DNA of 64,000 nt, from NCBI GenBank assembly GCA_964624585.1, contig CAZUXE010000009.1, positions 744-64,743 of the forward strand, read 5' to 3'. A program made the position numbers and the translations under genes. Shown piece by piece: positions 11,472-49,160 of the stretch (its first letter is position 1; each line of letters begins with the position of its first letter). A model generated the notes under the pieces. It made no database searches. It saw nothing but the letters and a program-made list of their open reading frames with translations, and was not told where the DNA came from. The DNA is from an uncultured bacterium (lineage in GTDB: Bacteria > Hydrothermota > Tepidihabitantia > B3-TA06).

Positions 11472-12210
11472 AATTCAGTTTACTAAGAATTATTACCGAT
11501 GTCAATACATAATTCACCTTATATATTTATCTATAGAAAAAGGAATGCAAAAAAAAACGACCTACAGATATGTTATAATGTCTAAATCATAAGTGTAGAA
11601 AATAGGGTATTTGTCTGGGAGTAACGCTAAAGAGAATTTAGTCTTCGGATACTATTCTGTTTCCATTTTCGTTTTCGGAGTAAGCTAAGAAGTTAGCAAG
11701 TTTATTTCGCTTTTGAATCTGTTGTAAAACTCCCGTTCCCTAAAAGAAAGGAGCGCCTGAATCCAAGCGCCCCATGGTGTTTGTTCTCCCACCCCTCGCT
11801 TTTGCCTTCCTCCCCCCTTCTCTTCTTCCCATCGTAAGCATCCCCTTTCCTACAATCTAATAAAAGCAATTTTTGTGCCAAGTATTTGGCGAAAGTTGTA
11901 TCTCTGTAAACATAGGCGTCTTATTGCTTTCGTGAAAAAAGGTATATATAGTCTGTAATTATTTGTTATCTAAAAGTATCATTGAATTGACTTTTTGGGG
12001 TATTCCTTTAAGTCTTATCTTATAACAAAGTTTCTGGATTTCTTAGGTTTATCCTATTCCCCCCTAACTAGGCGCTGGAATTATACGTTATCTTACTTCT
12101 ATCTTAAATTTATAGAGCTATCTCCTTCCGCAATACCCGGAATTCATTCCAAATATTTATCTTGCTTAAATTTATATAAGATTCTCTCTATATAGTATAG
12201 TGTAAGAATA

Positions 12211-12237
12211 CAAAAAAGAAGCCTCCATGGAGGCTTC
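12211..12237 (-). terminator. Rho-independent terminator downstream of the pta-like gene (perfect 20-nt palindrome gaagcctccatggaggcttc followed by a T6 run on the minus strand)
   Basis: Read directly in the sequence. Confidence 0.7.
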
Positions 12238-12288
12238 TTAATCGCAGAGTAAAATATTGTCTACAGTATTATCTCAACATCCTAAAAG

Positions 12289-13182
12289 CTAGACGCTGGC
12301 TATGGCTCCAAGAGCTATTGAATTCAACTTAGTTTCGGCGTCATCTGCTCGCGATAGCATGACAACCGGTTTAGCCGCGCCTGCAACAATGCCGCAGGCC
12401 TTTGCTGCGCCTAGATAGATAAGTCCCTTGGCAAATACATTTCCAGTTGTAATATCGGGTACAATCATGATATCGGCCGCGCCTGCAACTTGGCTTTTCA
12501 CAGCTTTCATTTTTACAGCTTCAGGTGATACAGATAAATCAAGCGCCAGAGGGCCATCAATCAATGCCCCCTTTATCTGTTTGCGGTTAGCCATTTGTGT
12601 AATTTCAGCCCATTCAAGGGTTTCGGGCATTTTAGGGTTTATGGCTTCAATTGCTGCTAGCAGGGCAACTTTAGGTGTATCTATACCCAGAGAATGGGCA
12701 ATGTCTATAGAATTATTAATAATATCAAGTTTAGTTTTTAAGTCAGGGCGAATATTCATACCGCCGTCTGAAACCATAATAAGGCGGCCTAGCTCACGTG
12801 GTTCAAGAATCGCTATATGTGAGAGAACTCGTCCAGTTCGTAAGCCCTTTTCCTTATGAAGCACAGCACTCAAAAATGCAGAGGTAGGTAGATGACCTTT
12901 CAAAAGGAAGTCGCCTTTTGTTGCTACTTCCTGTACCGCTTTCAATGCAGCTTCTGAATTTGGGCAGTCGATTACTTCAAATGCGTCAAGGGTTATTCCA
13001 GCCTGCTGAGCCGCTTTCTTAATATCATCAGCTTGTCCGCACAGTATACCTTTGGCAATTCCTTCTTTTTGGGCTTCATCTAAGGCCTTTAGCGTTACAA
13101 CATCAGCGGCAGCGGCCACCACGCATCTTTTGGGGCCTAATTGTCGAGCTTTTTCTTTAAGTTGAGATAGTGAGTTTATCAT
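12289..13182 (-). CDS. phosphate acetyl/butyryltransferase (Pta/Ptb family, short form)
   Basis: ~300-aa Pta_PtaB-fold protein: ...DGPLALD..., AGAADIMIVPDITTGN, GAAKPVVMLSRADDAETKLNSIALG. Confidence 0.75.
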   Translation of the reverse strand: MINSLSQLKEKARQLGPKRCVVAAAADVVTLKALDEAQKEGIAKGILCGQADDIKKAAQQAGITLDAFEVIDCPNSEAALKAVQEVATKGDFLLKGHLPTSAFLSAVLHKEKGLRTGRVLSHIAILEPRELGRLIMVSDGGMNIRPDLKTKLDIINNSIDIAHSLGIDTPKVALLAAIEAINPKMPETLEWAEITQMANRKQIKGALIDGPLALDLSVSPEAVKMKAVKSQVAGAADIMIVPDITTGNVFAKGLIYLGAAKACGIVAGAAKPVVMLSRADDAETKLNSIALGAIASV

Positions 13183-27700: not shown

Positions 27701-27739
27701 GCTTAAGTACCTCCATAATTAGACTTGCAAAATTTGAAG

Positions 27740-27812
27740 TGGAGCCAACGGGACTTGAACCCGTGACCTCTTGACTGCCAGTCAAGCGCTCTCCCAACTG
27801 AGCTATGGCCCC
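27740..27812 (-). tRNA. tRNA-Ala (anticodon GGC)
   Basis: Reverse complement GGGGCCATAGCTCAGTTGGGAGAGCGC..CTTGA-CTGGCAG-TCAAG..GGTTCAAGTCC..TGGCTCCA folds as a cloverleaf; no encoded CCA. Confidence 0.9.
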
Positions 27813-27959: not shown

Positions 27960-29174
27960 ATGTTAGAAACTAATAAAAAAGTTGCGGCTAAATTTGGAAT
28001 AGATACCGATCACATTGAAAAGTATGCTGATACACAAAGAAATATTGAAATTTTAGGGAATGATTTAACGTTTCTGGGATTAAGGGAACGAGAGAGAACT
28101 AAACATGTCCATCGTCTACATCCCTATTTGGGTAAATTTATCCCTCAATTAGTCGAGATTTTCTTAAAGAAATATTTTAAGAAAGCAGATACGGTTCTAG
28201 ACCCGTTTTCAGGTTCTGGGACAACATTAGTAGAAGCTAACGTATTAGGAATCAATTCTATAGGTGTAGAACTCTCATCCTTTAACGTACTGATTCAGAA
28301 AGTAAAGACACAAGAATATAATCTTCCAGAAGTTGAGAAAGAAATCAAAGATGCTCTCGGTAGAGTAAGAGCTTTTAGCAGACAGTTAATTGGTCGTAAA
28401 AAGGGGCTTTTTGATTCTACATTCAAAAGATTTGAAACAGACAGTGAATATATAAGAACATGGTTTGCTGATAGGACGATTCAAGAGATTCTTTTCTATC
28501 AAAGTATTATTGAGGATTACAAGTATTCAGATGTTCTTAAAGTTATTCTTTCACGTTCGGCTCGATCTGCTAGACTCATACCACATTATGATTTAGCGCG
28601 TCCTAAAAAACCGATTCGGGAACCGTACTGGTGTATTAAACATAAACGAGTCTGTAAACCTATAGAGGAAGTCTTGAAATTTCTGAATAGGTATAGTTAT
28701 GATACAATCCAAAGATTAAAGGAATTTGATGGCATACGAACAAACGCATCTATTCAAATTCTGCAAGGAGATTCAAGGAATATAGAATTGCATGACCAGA
28801 TAGATGGAATATTTACGTCACCACCTTATGTAGGTATTATTGACTATCATGAGCAACATAGATATGCTTATGAGTTATTTGGTTTTTCAAGATTGGATGA
28901 ATTAGAGATAGGACCAGCTAAGAAACGACAGAATATGCTAGCTAAGCGGGACTATACAGAAGGAATTATAGATGTTTTTCAGAACATGAATAGATATCTT
29001 AAATCAAAAGCGCCTGTTTTCATAGTTGCTAATGATAAGTTTGGTTTATACCCGAAGATAGGAGAGGTTTGTGGTTACAAACTAATCGACCAATTTAACA
29101 GACCGGTTTTGATGAGAACAGAAAGAGATTCAAACAAATATTTTGAGTCTATATTTCATTTCCGGAAGGAGTAA
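27960..29174 (+). CDS. DNA methyltransferase (N6-adenine/N4-cytosine type; AdoMet motif DPFSGSGTT N-terminal, SPPY catalytic motif C-terminal)
   Basis: VLDPFSGSGTTLVEA and IFTSPPYVGIIDY; AT-rich gene. Confidence 0.75.
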   Translation: MLETNKKVAAKFGIDTDHIEKYADTQRNIEILGNDLTFLGLRERERTKHVHRLHPYLGKFIPQLVEIFLKKYFKKADTVLDPFSGSGTTLVEANVLGINSIGVELSSFNVLIQKVKTQEYNLPEVEKEIKDALGRVRAFSRQLIGRKKGLFDSTFKRFETDSEYIRTWFADRTIQEILFYQSIIEDYKYSDVLKVILSRSARSARLIPHYDLARPKKPIREPYWCIKHKRVCKPIEEVLKFLNRYSYDTIQRLKEFDGIRTNASIQILQGDSRNIELHDQIDGIFTSPPYVGIIDYHEQHRYAYELFGFSRLDELEIGPAKKRQNMLAKRDYTEGIIDVFQNMNRYLKSKAPVFIVANDKFGLYPKIGEVCGYKLIDQFNRPVLMRTERDSNKYFESIFHFRKE

Positions 29175-29179
29175 TATTA

Positions 29180-29956
29180 ATGGGTTTATCAGAATTATCG
29201 GTTCAAAAAATCTCAAGTGTGTTAAAAAAAGCTATAAGGGAAAAAATTGCGAAATATAAACCAGAAACAGACTATAAACCATTTCACCATCGTCTTCTTG
29301 GGCGAGATAGGTATGCGATGTTTTCTTTTATTCATTCAATGAATACATCTTTCGGTACGTCTATTTGGGAACCTGTTGCCGTTATTTTAGCTCAAAACGC
29401 AGGTTATCAAGCGGAAAAATCGTATAAACTATTGGGTGAAATCGATAATGATACGGAAACGCGAATTACAGAAATTATTTACGGCCTTCAGAAAGCAGAA
29501 CGAAATGCAGATAAAAATGAAGAGATTAAAGAAATTCGGCGTGTAATAAAAAAAGGAAAACTTTTGAAGCATCCTAATTCTAATGTTGATTTACATGTAA
29601 AGATTGGTGACTTAGAGTGCTTTTTTGATATTAAGACAGTAAAGCCGAATGCTGAGGGATTTGAAGTGTTAAAAAAGAAACTTCTGAGATGGGTTGCATT
29701 GAAACTTAGCCAAGATAGAACTGCGAAAGTGTTTACGGGACTTGCTCTTCCGTATAATCCTTATCATCCTAAACCGTATAAGAGATGGACATTAAAGGGC
29801 TTGTATGATTTGGAAGGGCAAGAGGTGCTTGTAGGAAAAGAATTCTGGAATTACATTGGCGGAGGAGATGTTTACCAAGATTTGCTGAATGTTTTTCAAC
29901 AAACAGGCGAGGAGTTACGACCAGAGTTAAATAAGAAATTTTCCGAGTTCAAATAG
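29180..29956 (+). CDS. putative Type II restriction endonuclease partner (candidate PD-(D/E)xK: VD...IGD...ECFFDIK)
   Basis: Starts 5 nt after the MTase stop with a GGAG RBS, same strand, same low GC; no other recognisable domain. Confidence 0.4.
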   Translation: MGLSELSVQKISSVLKKAIREKIAKYKPETDYKPFHHRLLGRDRYAMFSFIHSMNTSFGTSIWEPVAVILAQNAGYQAEKSYKLLGEIDNDTETRITEIIYGLQKAERNADKNEEIKEIRRVIKKGKLLKHPNSNVDLHVKIGDLECFFDIKTVKPNAEGFEVLKKKLLRWVALKLSQDRTAKVFTGLALPYNPYHPKPYKRWTLKGLYDLEGQEVLVGKEFWNYIGGGDVYQDLLNVFQQTGEELRPELNKKFSEFK

Positions 29957-30106: not shown

Positions 30107-30179
30107 GCCAACGTAGCTCAGCTGGTAGAGCAACGCTTTCGTAAAGCGTAGGTCGCTGGTTCGAATCCAGTCGTTGGCT
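30107..30179 (+). tRNA. tRNA-Thr (anticodon CGT)
   Basis: GCCAACGTAGCTCAGCTGGTAGAGCAACGCT-TTCGTAA-AGCGT..GGTTCGAATCC..CGTTGGCT cloverleaf. Confidence 0.9.
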
Positions 30180-30253: not shown

Positions 30254-31114
30254 TTATTTTAACAATTTTCGAAGTTTTTTTACGGTAGCAGAACCAATGG
30301 TTCTTAAAGTTCCTAATGGAAACGTTGAAGCGGCAACAATGCAAAAATAACAATTTGCTTCAAGCATAAAGTAAGTAAGAATCCAGCTATCATCCAATCG
30401 AAACAGGCTTTCTGTAAGACTATTGTAACCTGTTTCAAGAAGTGTGTTTTTCGTTAAAGCCATCAAAGTCGCGAATCTTCCCGAATAAGATTCTTTGCTT
30501 AAGTCTGATTCGTTGATTTCGGCAATAACTTTTCCACCCATAGTTACCAAGGCGCAGACAACGTCTTTTCCTATCGCTTCCACCGTTTCATCCATTACGC
30601 GTTTTATGGTCTGAACCGAATAATCAGAAATTGCCGCGATAGGTTCTGGAGTTTCTCTAAGTTGAGTGGAGTTGTTCTGTTGCTGAAGTTCGGATTCTGA
30701 ACTTTGATAAGTTTCGTTACCCTCATTAATAATATTTTGAACTACATCTATTAGTTTTTTGGAGGGAAATGGTTTTACCAGATAGTCAAGTGTTCCCAAT
30801 TCATCCATTCCTTGCGTATCGGTTGAGAGGCGTCTGTTCCACGGCATTACCTGTGATGGAAAAGCGGTAACAACAACAATTTTTTGAGCCGGAGCTATTT
30901 GACGAATATGACGAATAAGTTGAATACCATCCATTATAGGCATTTTTAAATCCGTAATTACTAATCTATATTTATTGGGTTCAAAGAAATTGAGCGCCTG
31001 GGTTCCTGAAAAAGCGATATCTACACTGAAGCCTTCGTTAATCAGAACTTTACCCATTGCTTCTACGAATTTTTCTTCATCGTCGACAAAAAGAATCCGT
31101 ACTCCTTCGTTCAC
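30254..31114 (-). CDS. response regulator: REC domain plus C-terminal Roadblock/LC7 (MglB-like) domain
   Basis: ILFVDDE...LVITDLKMPIMDGIQLIRHIR...VVVTAFPSQ receiver motifs; C-terminal region matches the Roadblock pattern. Confidence 0.6.
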   Translation of the reverse strand: MNEGVRILFVDDEEKFVEAMGKVLINEGFSVDIAFSGTQALNFFEPNKYRLVITDLKMPIMDGIQLIRHIRQIAPAQKIVVVTAFPSQVMPWNRRLSTDTQGMDELGTLDYLVKPFPSKKLIDVVQNIINEGNETYQSSESELQQQNNSTQLRETPEPIAAISDYSVQTIKRVMDETVEAIGKDVVCALVTMGGKVIAEINESDLSKESYSGRFATLMALTKNTLLETGYNSLTESLFRLDDSWILTYFMLEANCYFCIVAASTFPLGTLRTIGSATVKKLRKLLK

Positions 31115-31144
31115 CGTAATCCCCTTGAATTGATCAAAAAAAAC

Positions 31145-31849
31145 TTAGGAATTAAATTTCCCTGATTTATCTTCATCATGCTTCTTGGCCCACTTCAATA
31201 GTAAAGCATTGATTGGTTCATCAATGGTATGCTCAACCTTTTTTTGCGGGATATTGGTCTTAAATAAACCCGACTCCCAGGTTTGAATTTCATAGAAGGC
31301 TTCTTTACCTGAAAGAGTTGGGGTTTCGGCATGAACAACTTGACCTCGTTCAAAATAAATTCTGCCGACTTCGCCGTTTTCTCCCTTTAGTACTTCAAGG
31401 ACGATGGTTCTTCCCATAAAACTGTAGAGTTGTATAAGGTCGGTTGAATTTAGTCGCACCGCTCCAAACCAGCCTTGCTCTCTTTCACGCAAAGAATCAT
31501 TAACCAGTTCAATGAAACGTTTGGGTTTGATAGGTTTAGCGATATAGGTTATAGTTCCGAGACTGAAAGCCTGTTCCTGTGAACGTTGCGAAGGAAAAGC
31601 TGTAAGAACCATTATTTTTTGCATTGGGTGCAGTTTTCTAAGTTCTGTGATGAGTTCAATTCCATCCATTTTAGGCATACTTAAATCGGTAATAACTAAA
31701 TCAATATTTTCCGGTTCGAAAATCTGAAGAGCTTGTTGCCCTGAATAGGCCGCGAATACTTCGAAACCTTGCAGGCGCAAAACTTGAGCCATTGTATCTG
31801 CATATTTCTTTTCGTCATCAACAAAAAGAATACGTGCTTTAGCGCTCAT
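31145..31849 (-). CDS. response regulator: REC domain plus C-terminal DUF4388 (PATAN-associated) domain
   Basis: ILFVDDE...LVITDLSMPKMDGIELITELR...MVLTAFPSQ; C-terminal G.L..I.L.D..Q......TI.LEV..G...G.IYFE.GQVVHA...L.G.EAFYEI..W..G.F resembles DUF4388. Confidence 0.6.
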   Translation of the reverse strand: MSAKARILFVDDEKKYADTMAQVLRLQGFEVFAAYSGQQALQIFEPENIDLVITDLSMPKMDGIELITELRKLHPMQKIMVLTAFPSQRSQEQAFSLGTITYIAKPIKPKRFIELVNDSLREREQGWFGAVRLNSTDLIQLYSFMGRTIVLEVLKGENGEVGRIYFERGQVVHAETPTLSGKEAFYEIQTWESGLFKTNIPQKKVEHTIDEPINALLLKWAKKHDEDKSGKFNS

Positions 31850-31921: not shown

Positions 31922-34900
31922 TCATTGCGGTTGTCCGGGTACCTCAATCACAAAACTTGCTCCTATTGACGTATCCTCAAGGTATATACGTCCTTTGAAA
32001 CGTTCAAGTAACATAACGGCAATAGATAATCCTAATCCGGTTCCTTGTTTATCGGTTTTGCTGCTTACTAGTGGCTCAAATATTTCATCTCTCAAGGCAG
32101 GAGGTATACCAGGACCATTATCATGTATTACTATACGTATCATTTCGGGTTCTGCAAGTTCAGTTGCAATAACTATTTTACCTTGAGAACCCATATCTAT
32201 CATGGCTTCAAAGGCATTTTGGACAACATTAATAATAACCTGTTGTAAGGCGACAGGATCAACCAAGGCAAGTGGGAGATTGTTCTGAAACTTTGTTTCT
32301 ACCATAACCTTATCCCTGTTTAGGTGTTTAGATAAAAGGCTTAAGGCTTCGCTGACTATTTCATTCACGCTTGAGGGTTTTGTTTCCGAGCGTTTGGGTT
32401 TAGTAAATTTAAGCAATCCTGTTACAACCTTATTGGTTCTGTCAACTTGCTCTTCCATAGTATCTAGGTATTTTGATACTTCTTTTCTGATAGCTGTGGG
32501 AACATCAAGGTTTTCTGCAAGGATAGTTCGTAATAATGAAGAGGTTGCTAGCATTATTGCTAAAGGATTGTTCACCTGATGAGCAATGCCTGCAGCAAGT
32601 ACTCCTAAAGACGCAAGTTTGGATGCGTTTATAAGTTGTTGTTGCATGCGTTTACGTTCGGTTACGTCGCGGGCAATGCCTACAATTTTATTCGGCAACC
32701 TTCGTACCGATATTTCCAGAACATGCTTTTTCCCTTTAGTATCCTTAATTTCGGCTTCGAATAAAGAACGTTTGCCTGAAGTATCCGGAGAACTAATTTC
32801 GGATATTATCTCCGCTACATTTACCGATGGTTTTGAACTTACGCTTTCGACAACATCCTGTAGCAATTCTCCCGTAAGACTAAGTTGAGAAAGTCCCATA
32901 ATATCTTCTACCGCAGGGTTGATGTAGATAATTTTGCCCTCAAGATTGAGGCTAAAGATGATATCTTGAGCGCTTTCGGCAAGTCCTCTGAATTGAGCTT
33001 CAGATTCGCTTAATGCCGCTTCAATGTTTCGCATTTCTGTAATATCGCGGGCGACATGAACGCTTGCTACCTGATTGCCTGAAGGATCATGCAAAGATGA
33101 TGATGAAACTGAGAATGTTCTGTTTCTAAAGGTATCTGCCAGCTCGAAATATTCAGAAAGCTTTAGGGTTATGGCAGTAGAATCTTTTTCTTCTAAAACA
33201 TTAAAAATCTCATAAAAGCTTCGTCCCTGAACTTCCTTAACATCAACACCTATATATTCGGCGACAGCTCTGTTTGCCCTCAAAATACGATATTCGGGAT
33301 CAAGAATCATAACCAAATCGGAAATTGAATCAAAAGTGCTTTCCCATTCCTTCTTTGCTCGCTCAATTTGACTTCGTTGCTTGAATAATTCAGTCACGTC
33401 CACACAGTTACCCAGAAAAGCGGTTTGATTACCGTAAGAAATAGGGCGAGTTCTAACCTCAAGAATAGCCTTTTCACCATTTTTGCGAACTATATTCATG
33501 GTATATTGATCAGGCTGGTTTGGTTTTCGTTTCTTTTTACGTTCGGTAATAATTTTAACGCTTTCGACAGGTAACATATCAAAGATATCCATCCCAAGAA
33601 GTTCTTCACGACTGTAGCCGAGTATTCTTTCCATTGCCGGATTAACGAACAAGAATTTACTTCCTAAAGCAAGATATATTCCAACCATAGCCTCTTCGGT
33701 AAGAACACGATAACGCTCCTCTGAATCCCGCAGGGCATCTTCTGCTTGTATTCTTTTTACAACAGCGGCTAGCTCTCCCGCCACGGTTTCTGCAAAATTT
33801 AATGTATGTTCATCAACCCATGCAATGGCTAAGGTTAACATACCCAGTATTTCATGCCCTGAACGCATGGCTACCGATATAAGGTGCACAGACGTTGGAT
33901 AAATATCTGTTGCAAGTTCAGATTGTATAGATTTATAGTTGTTTTTTATCAATGCTCCCTGCTCGGCAAAAACGTCTTGCACTAATTCGTTTTTTAGAGA
34001 AAAATCTGCTATCTCCTGAAAATCCTCTAATTTACTCCCAAAAGTTTTCGTAAGTTCCAACGCACTGGAGTTTTTATTAATTAGATATATTGCACCTGCG
34101 AATACTCCCGGAGTATCGGCAAGTAAATCAGCTGAGTTATCAAGTAGCTCGTCCATTGACAAGGATCGGTTAATGCGTTTGGAACTATTGTAAAGTCCTT
34201 CAATTGTTCTACTATGGCGACGTAGTTCCCGTTCCGAACGTTTTCTGTCTATCGTACTTCCGATGATGGAACCAACTGTTTGTAAAAGTTGGATATCCTC
34301 ATGCTTCCAGGGCCTATCTTTTGAAGAATCTTCAAAACCTATAAAACCCCATGGATGATTTTCCAGTTTTATTGGATAAACTAATGTCGACAGTTTTTGT
34401 CTGGCTTTTATATCAACAGTTTGGATAAAAGACAGTTCAAAAACAGGGTTACCATATGGCCTTCCTTCATCCATTTTTGCAACCATTTCTTGAGGTAAAT
34501 CTGTATAAGAAATGTGTATTGAAGCGTTTTTTTCGCGCCTATATTCTTTTCCACTATCAGCTCCAGCAACTTGTCGAGCGGAAAGTCCTTTTTCAGGATC
34601 TTCAAAATTCTCGAAAATAAATACCCTGCTTACACCAGCAACAGCGATAAGTTCCGTTATAACTTTTTCAAACGCTTCTTGCAAATTAGCTGTTTCAACT
34701 AATACACGTGAACAGTAAGCTATAGTTTCTTCATAAAATAAGCGTGACTTAATAGTTTCTTCTCGTGCTTTGAGCATTTCTTCAAAACGTTTACGTTCGG
34801 TTATATCCACTCCTGTAGCAATGAGTCTTTTTACTTTGCTATCTGGTTCAGGTAAGGGGATAAAACGCATAATAAAGTGACGAGAATTGCGGTAAACTTC

Positions 34901-37900
34901 TGTACTGTATGGTTCGCCGGTTTTTATTTTATCAAAGGTATCCCATATTTCCTTACATTCTTCAGGAGAGTGCAGTTTGCTTATGGGATTCCCATTATAG
35001 AACTCTGGAAGGTGCGCTTCAACCGCTGCAAATGCCGAGTTAACCCGTTCGTAGTATAATTCACCATTTTCTTCTCTAAGTGACCACAGCAACACATCAA
35101 CACCCTCAAAAAGACTTTCTAACTCAAGACGATGCCTGTCCCTTTCCAATTCAGTTCGTTTTCGTTCAGTGATATCTTCGCCTGAACTGAGAACACCAGA
35201 GATATTTCCCAATTCATCGGTTAAAACGGTATGGTACCAAATAATAATTCTCTCTTCACCTTTAGAATTAATGACAGGATATTCCTGAGATTCAGCAGGT
35301 TCTTTTTGAGAATGCATAAGTAAATTAAATCGTTTTCTTGCAAACGACTTAAATTGCTGAGGAATGAAGCTATTGAACCAATTTTTACCCAATATATCAA
35401 TTTCATCGTATCCCAATATCTTGCAGCCTTTTTTATTAATTAATGTAACTTTTTCGTCTCTATCTACAACAATAAGCATCACGCCTGCAATATCTAAATA
35501 TTTTTGAATTCGTTCTTTCTCTTCGAATAAAGCAATTTCTGCAAGTTTACGCTCAAGTGCAGCTGCAAACATTCCCGTGATTCTTTCAAAAAGTTTTCTG
35601 TCGTGTTTTGTAATTTCTGTAGGTTCATGATTCCATAAATGCATTACACCCAATAGATTCCGACTCACTCCCATAATTGGCCAGGAAATTATAGAACGAA
35701 TATGCAGTTTTTCTAATCTATTTCTGAAAGGTATTAATTCTTTTTCATCATAGACATCAGGTGCTATTATGGCTTGACCTGTATTTGCTGTATGGACGGC
35801 TATGTATTGGGAATCATCCAGATATCTCGGTTTTGACGCTTTTTTTCGTTCATCGTCAGTGAAACCTACCGAAGCTATTAATTCCAAGGCGTTAGATTCC
35901 TCTTTATACAATCTCAATGAAGCAAAATGAAAGTTTAGGGTTGTAATTAATCCAGAGAGAACTTTTTGACAAAGATCTGGAATTCCTGTTGCTCCAAGCG
36001 CGGCATCGGCAATTATTTGAAAAGCATGATGTTCCTTTTCCAGCGCTCGACTAGTTTTCTCACGCTCCGCTTCAGCAGCTTTACGTCCCTTTTCCGTTTC
36101 TATACTGTATAGAGCAAAGGCAAGATCGTTTGCCAGTTCAATAAATAAGTCCTGTTCTTCTTTATCTGAACTGAGTTCCTGTGGTAAGAGAACAGCAATA
36201 ACTCCATATATCTTTTCTCCATAAGCCAATTTTTTAGCTATCAAACCCATTTGTTTAGATTCATGATGAATACAAGGCCTAAGGCAGTCCTCAAGTTCCA
36301 TATCTACTAATGTTACGATATCTTCATCCAGAATTTTAGTCATACACTCCGGTATGGAATTTTCTCTAAGCTTATTCAATAGACTTGGACAAACTTCATT
36401 TAATCCTGATTCTGTAACCGATGTTGTTTTCTTTGCAGAGTCAACACATACTACCCATGCGCTGAAATACCCTCTTGATTCCACAAGTTTTTCGCAAGCT
36501 TGTTTAAGTAAAATATCACGGTTACGTTCCTTGGTAATAAGTTGATTTACATTGCGAACGGCTTTAAGAACGGCGTTAAGATGTTTATTTTTCTTTTCAA
36601 CCAACGCTCTATCGGTAACGTCTATACAGTGGCCCAGCTGAACCTCTTCCCCCATATAAACGATAGGTGAAGTTTTTATTTCCATATAGGCTAGCTCACC
36701 GTTTTTCCGCCTTACTCTTATCATATAATGATCCGGAATATCAAGTCCCTTTTTTCTGGCCAACTTTCGTTCTTCAAGTACCCCTTCTAAATCATCTTTA
36801 AGAATAAGATCCAAGGGATTTATTGCTAAAAGTTCGTCGGATGAATAACCGGTTATTTTTTCCATTTCAGGATTAACATAAATAAATCTATCATCCTTGC
36901 TGAAAATATATATTCCAACTTGAGCAACTTCAGTAAACCTGCGGAATCGCGCTTCAGATGTTTTCAGGGTTTTTAAATACCGAATTTCGCGGATTTGGCG
37001 TCCTATAATATCTACGATATCTTCAAGATACAAAATAGTTTCTATATCCGGCCTTTTCATATTAAATGGGGTATCAACGGAAAGATAGCTTTCTGGCGCG
37101 CCGCTTTTTGAAAGTAAAGATACCAGTAGTTCATCACCTTTTTTCCAGCCCTGCTCTTCTGTATTTGAAGGCTCCTCTTGAATAAGATAACGTCCGGTTT
37201 GCTTTATATTAACACCTGCATCAGCTGGAATAAAGTAAGAATTACTTATTTTGAACTCTTCTCTTAGCATCTGTTTCATTATCTCTGGTGTTGCCGGTGA
37301 CGATGCAGCCATTTTAGCGACAACTTCCGGATCAAGACCTACCTGAGCCCAATGGGTCGTTTTTCCTTCATTATCCTTCAAAGTAAATACAGCCCTTTTG
37401 AATAGGCGAGCATTTTTTACAGCATCGCAACCCAACTGTAAACATTCTTCAAGGGTCTTTGCTTCCCGTAAATCGGCCAACAAATCAGCCATTACAATTC
37501 GCTTAAACTCCATGGCTTTGAGGATAGAAATATTGGTTACAATGGCGGAAGTCTCAAGATAATTCCCCTTTGCATCCCTGCGGACGGATGGAGAGATAAT
37601 GCTGTTTACCCTTGAGTTATCTTTACTTATCCATGTAAGCTCAAAATGTTTTTCCCTTCCTTCCTTTTGTTTTACAAGCTGAGCGTAGATAATAGTTCTA
37701 TTTTTATCGTCAAGAAAATTGCTAATCGGTTTAGATAAAAGTTCCTCTGGAGCATAATCAAGCATTTCGCAAAAGCGATTGTTTACGTAGGTTAAAATCC
37801 CTTGTTCATTATAAATAATAAAGCCATTGTTCATATTCGCTATTAAAGACCGATAGCGTTCTTCTGATTCTTTTAAGGCCTTGCTAAGGGTCGCCTGTTC

Positions 37901-38521
37901 AATAGATTGACCAACTACATCTGCCGCAACTTTAACAAGATTGAAATCTTCAAGACTGAATTTCTGAGGTGAAAGAACAGTAATTGAACCAATTATCTGT
38001 CCCTTGCTGTCTTTGAAGGGGATACCTAAAAGTGATTGGGATTTAACCCTTTCGGTAATAATTTTTGTCAGCTTGCGTAAAGGACTACCTTCTTGCACCA
38101 AAGCTTCAAGCATAGTCTGCATATCAGTTTGAATTACCGGTTCATCAGGAGTAAAATCCAATCCAATTACAGTTGGATGGCCGGTTTTTATAGTTTGTGC
38201 AATAACGGTGTCTTGAGTCAGGGGAATTTTCCAATTTCGGTATTTTTTGCCCATAAGTTTTTCAACAAAATGGATAAGTTTCGAGGCTATTTTATGGGCG
38301 CGGACAACTAGATAACGACCACTTTCTTCAACTAAATTAACACTAACATAGGTGGGGAAAGCCATTGAAAGATGTTTAAGAATGGCGCTGAAAGTATTTT
38401 CAATAGATTGAACAGTGCATAACTCTTTAGTTAAACCAGCAAGTGCTGCACTTTCTGTAAGACAACGTTCATCGGTAGGTGATGTATCATTAGCGGATGT
38501 TTTCTTTGATGCTGCCATCAA
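31922..38521 (-). CDS. giant (2199 aa) multi-sensor histidine kinase: N-terminal GAF-like region, many PAS/PAC and GAF modules, C-terminal HisKA + HATPase_c; no receiver domain
   Basis: Repeated PAS signatures (..G.WE.D......Y.S......GY...E..G...), H-box GIAHQVNNPL, N/G1/G2 boxes NVVQNAFEAM, DNGPGIP, GTGLGLSIA at the C-terminus. Confidence 0.8.
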   Translation of the reverse strand: MMAASKKTSANDTSPTDERCLTESAALAGLTKELCTVQSIENTFSAILKHLSMAFPTYVSVNLVEESGRYLVVRAHKIASKLIHFVEKLMGKKYRNWKIPLTQDTVIAQTIKTGHPTVIGLDFTPDEPVIQTDMQTMLEALVQEGSPLRKLTKIITERVKSQSLLGIPFKDSKGQIIGSITVLSPQKFSLEDFNLVKVAADVVGQSIEQATLSKALKESEERYRSLIANMNNGFIIYNEQGILTYVNNRFCEMLDYAPEELLSKPISNFLDDKNRTIIYAQLVKQKEGREKHFELTWISKDNSRVNSIISPSVRRDAKGNYLETSAIVTNISILKAMEFKRIVMADLLADLREAKTLEECLQLGCDAVKNARLFKRAVFTLKDNEGKTTHWAQVGLDPEVVAKMAASSPATPEIMKQMLREEFKISNSYFIPADAGVNIKQTGRYLIQEEPSNTEEQGWKKGDELLVSLLSKSGAPESYLSVDTPFNMKRPDIETILYLEDIVDIIGRQIREIRYLKTLKTSEARFRRFTEVAQVGIYIFSKDDRFIYVNPEMEKITGYSSDELLAINPLDLILKDDLEGVLEERKLARKKGLDIPDHYMIRVRRKNGELAYMEIKTSPIVYMGEEVQLGHCIDVTDRALVEKKNKHLNAVLKAVRNVNQLITKERNRDILLKQACEKLVESRGYFSAWVVCVDSAKKTTSVTESGLNEVCPSLLNKLRENSIPECMTKILDEDIVTLVDMELEDCLRPCIHHESKQMGLIAKKLAYGEKIYGVIAVLLPQELSSDKEEQDLFIELANDLAFALYSIETEKGRKAAEAEREKTSRALEKEHHAFQIIADAALGATGIPDLCQKVLSGLITTLNFHFASLRLYKEESNALELIASVGFTDDERKKASKPRYLDDSQYIAVHTANTGQAIIAPDVYDEKELIPFRNRLEKLHIRSIISWPIMGVSRNLLGVMHLWNHEPTEITKHDRKLFERITGMFAAALERKLAEIALFEEKERIQKYLDIAGVMLIVVDRDEKVTLINKKGCKILGYDEIDILGKNWFNSFIPQQFKSFARKRFNLLMHSQKEPAESQEYPVINSKGEERIIIWYHTVLTDELGNISGVLSSGEDITERKRTELERDRHRLELESLFEGVDVLLWSLREENGELYYERVNSAFAAVEAHLPEFYNGNPISKLHSPEECKEIWDTFDKIKTGEPYSTEVYRNSRHFIMRFIPLPEPDSKVKRLIATGVDITERKRFEEMLKAREETIKSRLFYEETIAYCSRVLVETANLQEAFEKVITELIAVAGVSRVFIFENFEDPEKGLSARQVAGADSGKEYRREKNASIHISYTDLPQEMVAKMDEGRPYGNPVFELSFIQTVDIKARQKLSTLVYPIKLENHPWGFIGFEDSSKDRPWKHEDIQLLQTVGSIIGSTIDRKRSERELRRHSRTIEGLYNSSKRINRSLSMDELLDNSADLLADTPGVFAGAIYLINKNSSALELTKTFGSKLEDFQEIADFSLKNELVQDVFAEQGALIKNNYKSIQSELATDIYPTSVHLISVAMRSGHEILGMLTLAIAWVDEHTLNFAETVAGELAAVVKRIQAEDALRDSEERYRVLTEEAMVGIYLALGSKFLFVNPAMERILGYSREELLGMDIFDMLPVESVKIITERKKKRKPNQPDQYTMNIVRKNGEKAILEVRTRPISYGNQTAFLGNCVDVTELFKQRSQIERAKKEWESTFDSISDLVMILDPEYRILRANRAVAEYIGVDVKEVQGRSFYEIFNVLEEKDSTAITLKLSEYFELADTFRNRTFSVSSSSLHDPSGNQVASVHVARDITEMRNIEAALSESEAQFRGLAESAQDIIFSLNLEGKIIYINPAVEDIMGLSQLSLTGELLQDVVESVSSKPSVNVAEIISEISSPDTSGKRSLFEAEIKDTKGKKHVLEISVRRLPNKIVGIARDVTERKRMQQQLINASKLASLGVLAAGIAHQVNNPLAIMLATSSLLRTILAENLDVPTAIRKEVSKYLDTMEEQVDRTNKVVTGLLKFTKPKRSETKPSSVNEIVSEALSLLSKHLNRDKVMVETKFQNNLPLALVDPVALQQVIINVVQNAFEAMIDMGSQGKIVIATELAEPEMIRIVIHDNGPGIPPALRDEIFEPLVSSKTDKQGTGLGLSIAVMLLERFKGRIYLEDTSIGASFVIEVPGQPQ

Positions 38522-44145: not shown

Positions 44146-45837
44146 CTAAAATTTAAGTTCTTTTTGTAAAGTTTCATGTACTATGGCTGTAACATTGTTA
44201 ACCGCTTTGCGTACCTCATCAAGGAATTTTGTCGATTCATTAAGAAGTTCTTTTGCCTTAGCCTTGTCTGTAAGACCGGGTACGTTAATCATTACGTTGT
44301 CGTGTGCTCCTTCGGCAGCCGCTCTTGCTTGAGCAGCCGCTGTAGAAACATCAGAAATAGAATTTTTATTACCTTTTTTAGCAGTTTCCTTGGCAAGTTC
44401 AAGAACCTTTAACATTTTACGTACCACAGATAACGGCACTTCAACAGCGTTTAAGGTGGCGGCCTCTAGAGCTTTAGCGCGTTCTGCTTTCTCTTCATCA
44501 GTTTTTTTCTTCATGCGTGATGCAGCCATTAGTGTATTGAATGCGTCAGTATCCCTATCAATAGTGGCGTTGAGTTCATCTTTGAGCGCTTGAGCCTCAA
44601 CAGCAACCTTTTCCATATCTTCCCATACATCTTCATATCCCTTCTTGCCGTGAGTCAAATTAGCTACCATTGAGACCAAGGCCGCTGCCTGGGCGCCAGA
44701 TACTGCTGCAACTGAACCGCCTCCTGGGGCAGGAGAGTCGGATGATAACTCGTCAAAGTAGGCGTTGAGTTTCATGCCTTCTAGCCAACTTTCTTTTGCC
44801 ATGAAGTATTCAACTATCTTTTCTTCGGGCTTGAATGGATAAAGTTCGCTAAGCCCAAGAGACAAAACTGCGTGGTGAATAAGTTCAGATTCAGGTACTC
44901 CGGTGGATTTTCCCATTTTTCTTAAATAATGACGTCCGGCTTCCAAAAGGGCTTGTTTTGGTATAAGTCCTACAAGCTCTGAGCCTGTGATACGTGCGCC
45001 ACGTTTTTCAGCTTGCTTGACACATTCGTCAAAAACCTTGTGGATTGGCGTAATTTTGTAATTAGTAAAGTTTATCGATATCTGCGCTCGGCCGTACTCT
45101 TCAATAACCCAACCTACAGCTTTGCAATGAGTAAAAAGACCGGGTTTTTTAATGGCTCTACCAGCTTCATCGCGAATTATCTTTCCGTCAGAATCCCTTT
45201 TAGCCCTTCCTTTCTCCCTTATATCTAATGCAATGTCGTGAGCAATCTTGCGGTCACGGGTATTTAGGTTGAAATTATAAGCGATAAGAAATTCACGTGC
45301 GCCAACTGCTGTAGCTCCGGTTTTAGGATTAAATTCGGCAGGGCCGAAGTCAGGTTTCCAGTAGTCGGCTTCAGTACCTGTAAAACGACTGGCAAGTCCT
45401 TCGTATTGACCTTTTCTAACATTGGCAAGGTTTTTCCAATCATCCTTGGATGCCGCTTCTTCGTATAAATAAACAGGAATAGAAAGTTCCTTACCGATTC
45501 GCTTGCCTACTTTACGAGCTATTTCAACGCAATCTTGCATACTTACGCCTGAAACCGGTACAAAGGGACAAACGTCTGTTGCTCCCATACGGGCGTGAGC
45601 GCCTTTATGATTACGCATATCAATAACTTCAGCAGCTTTTTTCACTACCTGAAACGCGGCCTCTGCCACCCCTTCGGGTGAGCCGATGAAGGTTATAACC
45701 GTGCGGTTGGTTGCCTCACCAGGATCTACGTCAAGCAGTTTAACGCCTTTAACCTTTTCAATTACGGAGGTTACAGCGTCAATCTTCGCTTTGTCCCTAC
45801 CTTCGCTTATGTTGGGTACACACTCGACAATCTTCAT
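44146..45837 (-). CDS. ftcD: bifunctional glutamate formimidoyltransferase / formimidoyltetrahydrofolate cyclodeaminase (FTCD-like)
   Basis: N-terminus MKIVECVPNISEGR... formiminotransferase domain (~325 aa) followed by a helical cyclodeaminase-like C-terminal domain (~200 aa). Confidence 0.75.
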   Translation of the reverse strand: MKIVECVPNISEGRDKAKIDAVTSVIEKVKGVKLLDVDPGEATNRTVITFIGSPEGVAEAAFQVVKKAAEVIDMRNHKGAHARMGATDVCPFVPVSGVSMQDCVEIARKVGKRIGKELSIPVYLYEEAASKDDWKNLANVRKGQYEGLASRFTGTEADYWKPDFGPAEFNPKTGATAVGAREFLIAYNFNLNTRDRKIAHDIALDIREKGRAKRDSDGKIIRDEAGRAIKKPGLFTHCKAVGWVIEEYGRAQISINFTNYKITPIHKVFDECVKQAEKRGARITGSELVGLIPKQALLEAGRHYLRKMGKSTGVPESELIHHAVLSLGLSELYPFKPEEKIVEYFMAKESWLEGMKLNAYFDELSSDSPAPGGGSVAAVSGAQAAALVSMVANLTHGKKGYEDVWEDMEKVAVEAQALKDELNATIDRDTDAFNTLMAASRMKKKTDEEKAERAKALEAATLNAVEVPLSVVRKMLKVLELAKETAKKGNKNSISDVSTAAAQARAAAEGAHDNVMINVPGLTDKAKAKELLNESTKFLDEVRKAVNNVTAIVHETLQKELKF

Positions 45838-45970: not shown

Positions 45971-47236
45971 TTAGCGTCCCATGCGGCGGTAGTAATCATC
46001 TATAAGTTCTTGGACTGTACGAAGTTCTATCTCTACTCCGTCATCCAGTTTGATGCGTGCTACTTCCTCGTGAGCGGTTTTGGCAAAGGAGAAAGCTACA
46101 ATAATGCCTTTTGTACGTTTTTCACTACGAACAGCGGAATGAAATTTCTGCACCACTGGTCTACCTACACGTTCAGATTGTTTGACTTCAACGGGATTAT
46201 GGCCGAAGTCATGCCCGTCTATACCGTGGTCGCCGGATTTTCTACGTGAGCAAGTGCCGTGAAGCAAATCAACTATGACGTAATTCTGAAATTCAAAAGG
46301 TTCCATACCTTTAAGTTCATCTATAGTAACCGGCATACCAATTATTTCAACATTCCTATCATCTTTAATAAGTTTTGCCACCCTGCGCCGCGCAAGTTTA
46401 CAAGCAACAGGTGAAACATCACATCCAATCCAACGACGGCCAAGGCGCTCGGCTACAGCAATGGTAGTACCTCCTCCCACAAAGAAATCGGCAACTACGT
46501 CGCCTTCGTTAGAAGAGGCTTTAATAATACGTTCAAGTAACTCTTTCGGTTTTTGAGTAGGGTAGCCTAAACGTTCTTTTGATTGAGATTGAATACTATT
46601 GATATCTGTCCACCAATCTTCAGGGATTTTAGGTTCGTCAAGATAATATCTATAGTATTTCCCAGTAGATTTGACTAACTTATCTTGGTATTTTCTTCCA
46701 TTTTCATCAACACCCATTTTCCCACCAAAACTTTTTTCACCCGTATCCCTTGTGAAACCTACAGTTTTTCCATCAAAAAACCATTCGTTTGACTTTGAGT
46801 AAAAAAGGAGTGAATCATGTTTCCTTGCCCAGTGTCTTTGGGATTTTCCTCCGACATTGTAACACCAAATGATTTCGTTAAGGAAGTTTTTCATTCCAAA
46901 GATATTATCCATTTCGCATTTGACGTAGTGTACCGCGTGCCAGTCGAGGTGAACGTAGATAGTTCCGGTAGGCTTAAGTAAGCGGTGCATTTCCATAAGA
47001 CGTTCCTTCATCCATTGTACGTAGACGTTGATGCCGCCTTTCCAGCGGTCGCCGAAGGCACGAAGTTCAGCTCCGTTGCCCCATATTATTTCGTGTTGTC
47101 GATTGGAAAAGAATGGGGGGTCAATATAAATCAAATCAATGGATTCGGCAGGTAGACGTTGCATGACCTCCCAATTATCCCCACAGTATATAACACCGGT
47201 ACGGAGTGTATCTTGTTTTTCAACCTGCTTGGACAT
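45971..47236 (-). CDS. DNA methyltransferase (beta-class N6/N4; DPPF then FVGGGTT) fused to a C-terminal Mrr-like PD-(D/E)xK nuclease domain
   Basis: IYIDPPFFSN (motif IV), YPTQKP, VVADFFVGGGTT (motif I); C-terminus GDHGIDGHDFGHNPVEVKQ...QKFHSA resembles Mrr_cat. Confidence 0.7.
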   Translation of the reverse strand: MSKQVEKQDTLRTGVIYCGDNWEVMQRLPAESIDLIYIDPPFFSNRQHEIIWGNGAELRAFGDRWKGGINVYVQWMKERLMEMHRLLKPTGTIYVHLDWHAVHYVKCEMDNIFGMKNFLNEIIWCYNVGGKSQRHWARKHDSLLFYSKSNEWFFDGKTVGFTRDTGEKSFGGKMGVDENGRKYQDKLVKSTGKYYRYYLDEPKIPEDWWTDINSIQSQSKERLGYPTQKPKELLERIIKASSNEGDVVADFFVGGGTTIAVAERLGRRWIGCDVSPVACKLARRRVAKLIKDDRNVEIIGMPVTIDELKGMEPFEFQNYVIVDLLHGTCSRRKSGDHGIDGHDFGHNPVEVKQSERVGRPVVQKFHSAVRSEKRTKGIIVAFSFAKTAHEEVARIKLDDGVEIELRTVQELIDDYYRRMGR

Positions 47237-47330
47237 AATCGATAATACTTAATCGCAATAGGTTTGTCAATCAAGGGTAAAGGCATCATCTTTCCCTTTA
47301 TCCTTCCATCCAAGAGGAGAGAGGATATGC

Positions 47331-49160
47331 CTACAGTATTTCCTCAGGATCGATCTCAATACGCCAGCCTGATTTAAGCAAAGTTGATGCGTTCATTATA
47401 TCTTGTGGCGATAGGTCACGACGGAGTTTTACTAGTAGAGATGTTCTATTTCTTCGACCGGTATATGGACCCAGAATCTGTAGGCCGTCTCGTTCAAGCA
47501 AGCTAATCAATTTTTCAGGAGTCCACGACTTTTCAAGCTTGCGTTCAAAAAGAATAAGGCGGTTATAGGGCGGATACCCAAGTTCCCTACGTCTGCGGAT
47601 TTCCGACTGAAAGAATCGTTCGTAATCGCCCTTAAGCGCCCATTCAAGTAAGCTGTTCTTAGGACGAAAGGTTTGTACAATCAACCGTGATTCTGACGAT
47701 GAAACAAGAATGCGACGCAGATAGGCCAGATTGCGAAATGCACGTTCGCTTGAGCGAAAATCAGGTTGGCTCAACTCGGTGTCCCACGAAAGGAAAGCGC
47801 ATACCGCAACCCGCTGAGGGAAATATTCTAAAAGAGCGCTGGTTCCAAAAATGATATCTGCGGTTTCAACTTGTTCAATGGAAGGTCTTTGTTCGGCATT
47901 TATTTGACAAAGCTTTGATGATGGAAAGCTTTTTGAGAGTTCAGTTGAAAGGGCTTTGAGTCCAAGAGATAACTGCTTCCAGTTTGCACCAGAACATTGT
48001 GGACATTTTTCAGGTGCAGACTGCTGTTTTTTACATATAGGGCATAGTAGAGCCTTACCATGGGCTATAAATTTCATAGGAACCCCGCATTTAGGGCAAG
48101 AGATGGTTTGTCCACAGTCAAGGCAGATTAATTTGGAAGCTGTACCAAGGCGGTTGAGAAGGATAACGCTTTTCATACCCCTTTGACGGCATTCGCTCAT
48201 TTGTTTGAACAATGGTCTGGATAATAAAATACTATCGGGTTGATTTTTTAAGTCAACAAGTATTGCTTTTCCTTTTTGAGGCGATTTTCTTTCTATTGAT
48301 AGATATTTACCTGCACGAGACTTATGTGAAGTAAGCATTCGTGGAGCCATAGAAAAAGAGATGATTTGTGATTTTTCCAATTCAGCCCTATATATTGCAG
48401 AATCCGCCGCATTATAGTGTAAATGATGGGAACGCACCCGATGTGAGGAGGCATCTTCGTCAAAAACCACTATCAATCCCAAATTATTGAAGGGAAGTAA
48501 AACCCCTGAACGTAATGCTGCAACTAACGGAACTATTTGCTTACGTACCCCGAACCATGTTTGTCTTCTTTCAGTCATAGATAGATTTGAGTGGTATAGT
48601 GTAACGGGAAGGAATGAGGAGAAACGCGCTGAAAATCGCGTTAATGCGGGTTCGGAAGGTAACAAAATAAGCGCCTGACGTGAATTACGGATAGTGCGTA
48701 GACATAGTTCAACAATCAGAGCAGTGTAGTCTGCTGATGAAGTTAAAATCACCGGTTTTGTTGATTTCTCAAATAATTCAAGTATTTCCTTTTCATCAGG
48801 CCTTAGCTTAAGAAAGCTTTTTGAAGGTATGGGGGAAGGAGTAGGGTACTTTTTAGGGGGACGATGGATATCCTTTGGCAGAGCCAAACCGAGGGTCTCT
48901 CCCATAAAGGCAAGATGTTCTGCAGTCAGTATATGGCACAGTTCCAAAAGCGAGGGGGGGAATGCTTGTTGGGAAATTACCTCTTTGATATCCTTCAGTT
49001 TCTTAGTGTCGCAGTATTTCTCAATACTTACGATAACCGCAGGAACCAATGAGTTGCCGAGAGGCGCTTTAACTAAATCGCCAATACCTAAATTAAGAGA
49101 ACTGCTGTAGAGGAGTCCATCCAAGGGACGCCATAGAGGTACAGCGCGAGCATAAATCAA
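47331..49160 (-). CDS. priA: primosomal protein N' (PriA) homolog with degenerate ATPase/helicase motifs
   Basis: Colinear with E. coli PriA (3'-binding domain, lobe 1, Cys-rich zinc region CPKCG...CPIC...CPQCSG, C-terminal domain); Walker A GSGKT replaced by SSADYT, DEEH by DEDA, GSATP by FSMAP, QxxGRxGR by ERAFRNLAYLRR. Confidence 0.7.
   Translation of the reverse strand: MIYARAVPLWRPLDGLLYSSSLNLGIGDLVKAPLGNSLVPAVIVSIEKYCDTKKLKDIKEVISQQAFPPSLLELCHILTAEHLAFMGETLGLALPKDIHRPPKKYPTPSPIPSKSFLKLRPDEKEILELFEKSTKPVILTSSADYTALIVELCLRTIRNSRQALILLPSEPALTRFSARFSSFLPVTLYHSNLSMTERRQTWFGVRKQIVPLVAALRSGVLLPFNNLGLIVVFDEDASSHRVRSHHLHYNAADSAIYRAELEKSQIISFSMAPRMLTSHKSRAGKYLSIERKSPQKGKAILVDLKNQPDSILLSRPLFKQMSECRQRGMKSVILLNRLGTASKLICLDCGQTISCPKCGVPMKFIAHGKALLCPICKKQQSAPEKCPQCSGANWKQLSLGLKALSTELSKSFPSSKLCQINAEQRPSIEQVETADIIFGTSALLEYFPQRVAVCAFLSWDTELSQPDFRSSERAFRNLAYLRRILVSSSESRLIVQTFRPKNSLLEWALKGDYERFFQSEIRRRRELGYPPYNRLILFERKLEKSWTPEKLISLLERDGLQILGPYTGRRNRTSLLVKLRRDLSPQDIMNASTLLKSGWRIEIDPEEIL

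Follow-up and report, generated by a model that had tools for sequence, protein, structure and literature searches.

A PriA homolog without ATPase motifs in a WOR-3 ('Stahlbacteria') lineage: a probable pseudohelicase ortholog of priA and its methyltransferase-Mrr neighbour

PriA proteins without a working motor have been described from nature and from the laboratory. The PriA of Deinococcus radiodurans (DrPriA) has non-consensus Walker A and Walker B motifs and neither ATPase nor helicase activity (Lopper et al., 2015, PMC4504706), and it binds single-stranded DNA and forks with near-normal affinity and interacts with DnaB (PMC4504706). In Escherichia coli, the priA300 allele (K230R) encodes an ATPase-dead protein that supports restart in vitro, and the mutant cells are much like wild type; only the PriA-PriC route and some special reactions require PriA to act as a helicase (PMC5778457). 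Here, a PriA-like protein in which the ATPase motifs are more thoroughly altered is described from a 64,000-nucleotide stretch of DNA (the window) of an uncultured bacterium (assembly GCA_964624585.1, contig CAZUXE010000009.1, positions 744 to 64,743), the source contig being a 122-kb metagenome assembly. Its gene (609 aa, minus strand 47331-49160) lies 94 bp upstream of a 421-aa open reading frame (ORF) on the same strand (45971-47236), which fuses a DNA methyltransferase (MTase) to an Mrr-type nuclease domain.

A sequence-only reading of the window had drawn attention to both ORFs, whose positions, lengths and spacing were reproduced here, and had proposed that they form an undescribed module. 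The analysis now indicates that the 609-aa gene is probably the priA ortholog of a WOR-3 ('Stahlbacteria') lineage turned pseudohelicase, and that its 421-aa neighbour is a separate gene with no specific tie to PriA.

Retained architecture and lost ATPase motifs

Homology to PriA extends along the whole protein, as the sequence-only reading had claimed when it aligned the domains colinearly. The PriA equivalog model TIGR00595 scores 238 bits, just over its curated cut-off of 230.35, and phmmer searches of the PDB match the PriA chains of Klebsiella pneumoniae and E. coli with E-values of 1e-45 to 1e-43. PriA_3primeBD (PF17764) is found at residues 20-95 (4.3e-10; 39.8 bits against 22.7) and is the sole Pfam domain, with no Pfam match to DEAD or Helicase_C anywhere in the protein. 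An AlphaFold2 model built on a 65-sequence alignment reached a mean predicted local distance difference test (pLDDT) of 90.1 and a predicted template modelling score of 0.88, and residues 239-244 are its sole stretch with pLDDT below 50. When this model was compared with the PDB using Foldseek, the nine best matches were all PriA structures (6dcr, 4nl4 and 8fak among them), with query TM-scores (TMq) of 0.72-0.81; the top five chains scored 0.77-0.81 (E-values 3e-45 to 2e-41). The best mutual match is 6dcr, a winged-helix-deletion variant of E. coli PriA, and the next fold after PriA is Mfd, with TMq below 0.45.

The elements of PriA that contact DNA or hold the scaffold together are retained. 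All eight cysteines of the zinc region (C346, C349, C355, C358, C373, C376, C386 and C389) are invariant in 65 clade and canonical sequences. MAFFT alignments show that motif Ib (RSA), motif IV (LLNRxG) and the signatures PDFRSxER, YNARD and ELGYPPY are kept, and that the C-terminal domain (CTD) aligns colinearly with canonical PriA through ELGYPPY and the DP motifs. Judged from alignment and model, the protein has the whole PriA architecture minus the winged-helix domain, which in the alignment is also missing from some short canonical PriAs.

The ATPase motifs were compared in MAFFT alignments of the window protein with 5 to 49 canonical PriAs. These were used for Walker A in particular, given that the phmmer alignment to PDB chains begins at residue 149 and is thus blind to it. 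At motif I, canonical GVTGSGKT is replaced by --SSADYT, which is two residues shorter, has no Gly-Lys and carries Y145 in place of the Walker A lysine. Motif Ia has changed from LVPEIALTP to LLPSEPALT, motif II (Walker B) from VVDEEH to VVFDED, and motif III from GSATPS to FSMAPR. Canonical motif V, GTQMLAKGHDFP (GTQMxAKGHDFP type), has become GTSALLE-YFP, and motif VI has changed from QVAGRAGR to YLR-RILV, with the loss of both GRAGR arginines. The claim that every nucleotide-handling motif is degenerate in an otherwise intact, pseudohelicase-like structure was thus borne out by re-alignment. For Walker B, which had been given as DEEH changed to DEDA, the loss of the motif stands, the MAFFT pairing being one residue off from that alignment. 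Clade relatives read DEES, DADS, DCES or DSDS here, so that the position of the catalytic glutamate is E, A, C or S across the clade, and the histidine is gone in either register.

No match to the pattern [AG]xxxxGK[ST] was found anywhere in the window protein or in any clade member. A structure prediction of the ATP pocket, which the sequence-only reading had suggested as a check, shows a strand at residues 137-140, a loop of five residues and a helix from T146, in agreement with a truncated P-loop. The protein is therefore predicted to be unable to bind or hydrolyse ATP in the canonical way. Such selective loss of the ATPase motifs, with scaffold and DNA-contact elements retained, is to be expected of a pseudoenzyme whose scaffold has been kept.

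The altered positions are themselves conserved. S141, D144, Y145 and T146 of the old P-loop and D234 of the old Walker B are invariant in the clade. Furthermore, a His/Arg-rich loop, SSHRVRSHHLHY, one residue longer than its canonical counterpart, is among the most conserved stretches of the clade: R243, H246 and Y249 are invariant, H245 and H248 are at least 90% conserved, and [RK][VE]R[ST]HH[LI]HY was picked automatically as a clade-specific pattern. The loop lies where canonical PriA has its aromatic-rich loop, which couples DNA binding to ATP hydrolysis (PMC5175346).

The clade itself is compact and distinct. A word-indexed search of 5.8 billion proteins returned 16 full-length relatives of about 608 aa, 49-55% identical to the window protein and with the 3'-DNA-binding domain (3'BD) as their only Pfam domain; beyond them, identity falls to about 30%, with canonical PriAs. 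In an exhaustive HMMER scan of 1.84 billion representatives clustered at 50% identity, the clade forms one representative at 736 bits and the next match scores 247 bits. The clade occurs in eight GTDB species-representative genomes, labelled 'Candidatus Stahlbacteria' or 'candidate division WOR-3'. The ratio of non-synonymous to synonymous substitution rates (dN/dS) of the gene is 0.19-0.28 for close pairs (85-96% identical) and 0.11-0.14 for more distant ones. Every domain falls between 0.10 and 0.28, comparable to tamB (0.16-0.22), and the DNA-handling domains, 3'BD and the Cys-rich region (CRR), are the most strongly constrained. With low ratios in all domains, the gene is under purifying selection and is functional.

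The tamB-linked slot and the question of orthology

The PriA-like gene sits in an ordinary chromosomal setting, where gatC-gatA-gatB, an M29 aminopeptidase gene, omp85 and tamB lead to the PriA-like and MTase-Mrr region, followed by glyQS. The minus-strand row in the window runs from the TamB-like gene through the PriA-like gene, the 94-bp gap and the 421-aa ORF to a formiminotransferase-cyclodeaminase gene (Table 1). The stop codon of tamB and the start codon of the PriA-like gene overlap as TTGA (window 49157-49160). Every clade locus has the same order, gatCAB-M29-omp85-tamB-priA-like, with the same overlap.

The slot is not confined to the degenerate protein. In the WOR-3 metagenome-assembled genome (MAG) B36_G15 (locus L040), a 625-aa PriA with all motifs intact (GVTGSGKTEVY, DEEH, GSATPA, KGHDFP and QVAGRAGRG) begins in an overlap with the stop codon of a TamB C-terminus, exactly as in the clade. 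The motif-less PriAs of two further loci (L095 and L096; 28% identity) also directly follow omp85-tamB. A canonical PriA in this slot indicates that the operon position is older than the motif loss, and that the window gene is a positional ortholog of canonical priA, probably not an extra copy. The gene is thus most likely the lineage's own priA, which lost its ATPase function in place. The sequence-only reading had expected the genome to encode a further PriA; this expectation is not supported, given the slot and the precedents of DrPriA and priA300 (PMC4504706, PMC5778457). As a separate observation, the start-stop overlap of priA and tamB was recorded in loci L003-L011, L015-L022, L040, L095 and L096. 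The omp85-tamB-priA order is stable in very divergent WOR-3-type genomes, whether their PriA is canonical or degenerate, so that a replication-restart gene is steadily coupled to an outer-membrane biogenesis operon.

Several points weigh against this reading and favour a neo-functionalised paralog that coexists with a canonical priA elsewhere in the genome and has taken on another role, possibly one linked to the outer-membrane biogenesis operon. The overlap with the tamB stop suggests translational coupling. The new conserved residues in the old ATP pocket could serve a new ligand or function and not mere structural filling. Scanning the 64-kb window and about 250 kb of related loci with three canonical PriAs revealed no second PriA homolog, a result that argues against a paralog but covers those regions and not whole clade genomes. 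In addition, a search with the L040 PriA returned a partial canonical PriA labelled 'Candidatus Stahlbacteria' (P0319). However, P0319 groups with the L040-type lineage, at 66% identity, and its accession series (HID...) is unlike that of any degenerate PriA; as the label 'Candidatus Stahlbacteria' has been applied to the whole phylum (PMC12285271), P0319 is uninformative on whether the two forms co-occur in one genome. The canonical PriA at the identical tamB-overlapping position in another WOR-3 genome, and the strong constraint on precisely 3'BD and CRR, also speak against a paralog, which we consider unlikely.

A second alternative is that the protein is still an active motor that binds or hydrolyses nucleotide through a non-canonical site. 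T146 and D234, the counterparts of the Walker A threonine and the Walker B aspartate, are invariant, and E. coli PriA has been proposed to carry a second, weaker site for nucleotide (PMC5778457). Against this, the P-loop is two residues shorter and has neither its glycine nor its lysine, the position of the catalytic glutamate varies, the DExH His/Gln has gone along with the two arginines of motif VI, and motifs III and V have changed, whereas in E. coli PriA the K230R substitution is enough by itself to abolish activity. Residual motor activity is therefore very unlikely, and loss of the motor in the lineage's own priA is the reading carried forward below.

The methyltransferase-Mrr neighbour

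The description of the 421-aa protein as a fusion of a beta-class MTase and an Mrr-type PD-(D/E)xK domain holds. Pfam places N6_N4_Mtase (PF01555) at residues 33-283 (6.8e-49; 167 bits against 26.7) and Mrr_cat (PF04471) at residues 309-403 (2.1e-8; 34.7 bits against 21), and both domains have intact motifs. Motif IV (DPPF, residues 39-42) precedes motif I (FFVGGGTT, residues 251-258), which is the beta-class order, and both are at least 90% conserved in the family. The best NCBIfam and PDB matches are YhdJ-like proteins, CcrM and M.RsrI; together with the aspartate of DPPF, these suggest that the specificity is probably for N6-adenine. In the Mrr domain, D340, E350 and K352 are present.

The sequence-only reading had likened this fusion to a single-chain, Type IIC-like restriction-modification (R-M) enzyme and had called its pairing with the PriA-like protein undescribed; the fusion architecture itself is not new. 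More than 120 full-length homologs with at least 49% identity were found among at least 8000 matches, in hosts as varied as WOR-3, Chloroflexi, Nitrososphaeraceae archaea, Prevotellaceae and Treponematales. The C-terminal domain is kept in 120 of 120 family members and D-(Q/E)-x-K in 116, the triad being D/Q/K in 105 and D/E/K in 11. In PADLOC, MTase_II PDLC03339, a REBASE-derived Type II MTase model of 399 positions, covers residues 16-383; as it aligns across both domains, the architecture had already been catalogued. The window protein shares with the PF01555 and PF04471 family its two domains, its length (about 410-430 aa) and the conserved DPPF, FxGxGTT and D-(Q/E)-x-K motifs, and is distinguished only by a glutamate in place of the commoner glutamine in (Q/E)xK. 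A literature search on the combination of Mrr with N6_N4_Mtase returned nothing relevant and no report of activity or specificity for the family. No partner gene is conserved near the other MTase-Mrr loci examined. The protein may be a single-chain R-M enzyme or a nuclease that depends on modification, or else a methylase whose DNA-binding domain derives from a nuclease.

The gene also appears to be transcribed independently. A promoter-like sequence, TTGACA, a spacer of 16-17 nt and TATTAT (TATCAT in L012), ends 5 nt before the ATG and is kept in the window, in L009 (9839-9867), in L018 (7895-7922) and at the unlinked site L012 (7968-7996). No Shine-Dalgarno sequence precedes the ATG in the loci examined. 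The short distance and the missing Shine-Dalgarno sequence point to an autonomous and probably leaderless transcript, so that the gene is probably its own transcription unit, the promoter being a match to consensus. It is a clean example of a methylase gene that is self-contained and probably leaderless, and otherwise offers nothing new.

Could the two genes nevertheless form a functional module, for instance with the PriA-like protein as a scaffold that targets or regulates a single-chain R-M enzyme? Of about ten informative lineages, three diverged ones (the window, L009 and L018) have the two side by side on one strand. In about seven others, the slot after the PriA-like gene is empty or holds an unrelated 178-aa ORF, and presence is patchy even among close relatives with PriA-like proteins 85-96% identical, as in L018 against L005, L007 and L017 (85-88%). 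In GCA_030640845.1 the two genes lie on different contigs (PriA-like on DAOWIO010000014, MTase-Mrr on DAOWIO010000071), where the MTase-Mrr gene (L012; 78% identical to that of L018) stands between a response regulator gene and cysS. The other WOR-3 MTase-Mrr loci examined have no PriA nearby, PADLOC returned no defence-system match for the PriA-like protein, the promoter is conserved at the unlinked site as well, and the MTase-Mrr family, thousands strong, extends to phyla without this PriA variant. We give the module hardly any credence.

Divergence and composition tell how the neighbour may have come to lie there. The MTase-Mrr gene diverges between lineages to 67-78% identity, like GatB and the M29 peptidase (69-77%), and its GC content is host-like (0.43), as against 0.346 in a true mobile R-M islet of the window, so that it looks like a resident gene that has moved within genomes and not a recent import. 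The point that counts the other way is that its divergence between the three lineages with adjacency (67-73%) matches that of GatB (69-72%), so that the adjacency may be ancestral. The pairing with PriA is incidental, or at the most a trace of old synteny in a slot of variable content. On this reading, the MTase-Mrr protein is unremarkable within a very large family that has spread horizontally, and has no specific functional tie to PriA.

Some further observations concern this slot, which is the region between the PriA-like gene and a conserved convergent pair of unknown genes of about 240 and 250 aa. The 178-aa ORF (L010 9907-10443 and L011 10083-10619, both plus strand) has no Pfam family and its copies are 32% identical; it was considered as an MTase-Mrr remnant and rejected, as it has no similarity to MTase-Mrr. 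An MTase-Mrr protein 79% identical to that of the window (P0122) and a C-terminal PriA-like fragment of 111 aa (P0511) are each recorded on a contig of 4007 bp in the MEA33... series and may be a fourth case of adjacency, which would count towards a module. The same series also has a full-length PriA-like protein (P0513) on another contig, a hint of strain heterogeneity in the MAG. About 2 kb downstream of the MTase-Mrr gene in L012 there is a second, shorter N6_N4 methylase (298 aa; 11513-12409, plus strand) followed by a 219-aa unknown gene, possibly a further R-M pair. Scans with Rfam and for tRNAs gave no match in the interval 45971-49160.

Table 1. Features of the PriA-like and MTase-Mrr region (window coordinates)
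Feature	Position	Strand	Remarks
TamB-like gene, 1193 aa	49157..52738	-	Pfam TamB 7.9e-37; in operon gatCAB-M29 peptidase-omp85-tamB-priA
PriA-like gene, 609 aa	47331..49160	-	TTG start; probable replication-restart PriA ortholog without any ATPase motif (pseudohelicase)
3'-DNA-binding domain, residues ~1-100, retained	48861..49160	-	Pfam PriA_3primeBD; pLDDT 91-97; dN/dS 0.13-0.19
Former Walker A/P-loop, S141-S-A-D144-Y145-T146	48723..48740	-	Replaces GxTGSGKT; 2-residue deletion
Former Walker B, F233-D-E-D-A237 for (V)DEEH	48450..48464	-	D234 invariant; flanking positions vary
His/Arg-rich loop, residues 238-249, SSHRVRSHHLHY	48414..48449	-	At position of PriA aromatic-rich loop (motif IIa)
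Cys-rich region, 4 x CxxC (C346...C389), retained	47994..48125	-	Two predicted zinc sites; alignment
Former motif VI, Y480-L-R-R-I-L-V486 for QVAGRAGR	47703..47723	-	Arginine-finger motif gone (alignments)
C-terminal domain, residues ~501-609, retained	47331..47660	-	Colinear alignment; pLDDT >90; dN/dS 0.10-0.21
Promoter-like site, TTGACA-17-TATTAT	47242..47270	-	11/12 consensus match, best in region; 5 nt before MTase-Mrr ATG
MTase-Mrr gene, 421 aa	45971..47236	-	Beta-class MTase (33-283) and Mrr-type PD-(D/E)xK (309-403); independent gene
Formiminotransferase-cyclodeaminase gene	44146-45837	-	Beyond the 421-aa ORF

Elsewhere in the window, a two-gene Type II R-M cassette (27960-29956, plus strand) encodes an N6_N4 methylase of 404 aa and a TdeIII-family endonuclease of 258 aa. 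It is flanked by tRNA-Ala (27739-27812, minus strand) and tRNA-Thr (30107-30179, plus strand) and is the islet of GC 0.346 mentioned above, as against about 0.41 for the window, with a strong GC skew; as a low-GC islet between two tRNA genes, it looks horizontally acquired. An ORF of 2199 aa (31922-38521, minus strand) is annotated with many PAS/GAF sensor domains and is followed by two response-regulator genes (30254-31849).

Proposed function and comparison with known PriA proteins

Least credible of all is that the PriA-like gene is decaying into a pseudogene or is an artefact of annotation: all its catalytic motifs are lost and NCBI names some orthologs 'hypothetical protein', but decay or relaxed selection is ruled out by 130 invariant positions, a dN/dS of 0.1-0.3, a confident AlphaFold2 fold and ORFs of about 608 aa that are intact and colinear in 16 or more sequence clusters.

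By analogy with DrPriA and E. coli K230R, the Stahlbacteria PriA-like protein would still recognise abandoned replication forks. Contact with the fork would be made by 3'BD and by those surfaces of CRR, CTD and the former helicase lobes that bind DNA, and the conserved His/Arg-rich loop may take part in it. The protein would go on to nucleate the reloading of the replicative helicase while unwinding no DNA of its own accord. The residues that now fill the old nucleotide pocket probably hold the two lobes in a fixed arrangement, although this is speculative. Purifying selection on a thoroughly degenerate PriA in the slot of an intact one strengthens the view that the essential job of PriA is fork recognition and recruitment of the helicase loader, and that unwinding is not.

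Motor loss may extend beyond this clade. As a by-product of the exhaustive search, 149 non-clade proteins (P0241-P0389) were available among the 150 best-scoring representatives at 50% identity. Motifs I, II and VI are kept in 92 of these nearest PriA representatives, some are kept in 10 and all three are lost in 47, a share that is no estimate of prevalence, as the sample was ranked by similarity to a degenerate query. The 4xCxxC zinc region is kept in 47/47 degenerate representatives, and none of the 47 has a P-loop anywhere. When the motif columns were left out and a neighbour-joining tree was built, the degenerate state required at least 10 changes and fell into 16 separate groups, although such a tree is crude and prone to long-branch attraction. 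Within WOR-3, the tamB-priA slot holds a canonical PriA and several very divergent degenerate ones. These data suggest that PriAs without a motor are more common than is implied by the phrase 'except in Deinococcus' in the literature. The further proposal that motor loss is a recurrent evolutionary outcome and not a Deinococcus oddity is tentative, falling just short of an even chance. If it were true, ATP-independent replication restart would be widespread in uncultivated bacteria, and the S-x-A-D-Y-T residues together with the HRVRSHHLHY loop may lock the former motor in a fixed fork-binding conformation.

Compared with canonical PriA (4nl4, 6dcr, 6dgd and 8fak), the Stahlbacteria protein has the same 3'BD, lobe 1, lobe 2 with its inserted 4xCxxC zinc region and CTD, but it lacks the winged helix and the motifs for ATP binding and hydrolysis. 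Its identity is about 21-24% to solved PriA structures and about 29% to canonical WOR-3 PriA. Comparative structural studies could use it as a PriA that is "motor-less" by nature.

The E. coli priA300 product is likewise an ATPase- and helicase-dead PriA, one that still assembles primosomes and restarts replication via the PriA-PriB route (PMC5778457). However, priA300 is an engineered single substitution, whereas the loss in Stahlbacteria is natural, fixed and spread over several motifs. The restart partners in E. coli are PriB, DnaT, PriC and Rep.

DrPriA is the closest parallel, as the Stahlbacteria protein, a probable PriA ortholog, shares with it non-consensus Walker A and B motifs and a retained DNA-binding architecture. 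In DrPriA the loss of ATPase and helicase activity has been shown biochemically, whereas the Stahlbacteria protein is known from sequence and model. The extent of the change also differs: in Deinococcus-Thermus the Walker A lysine is replaced by arginine within a recognisable P-loop, whereas in Stahlbacteria the P-loop has given way, with a deletion, to SSADYT, and motifs III, V and VI have also gone. Past the clade and outside WOR-3, the matches listed are canonical or degenerate PriAs, none of them identified as Deinococcus-Thermus, and in WOR-3 this slot also contains a canonical PriA. Judged from the slot and these matches, motor loss in WOR-3 looks independent of that in Deinococcus-Thermus. 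The window gene, from a different phylum (WOR-3), encoding a short protein (609 aa) and lacking the winged-helix domain, is thus probably a second and more extreme example of a PriA pseudohelicase beside that of Deinococcus.

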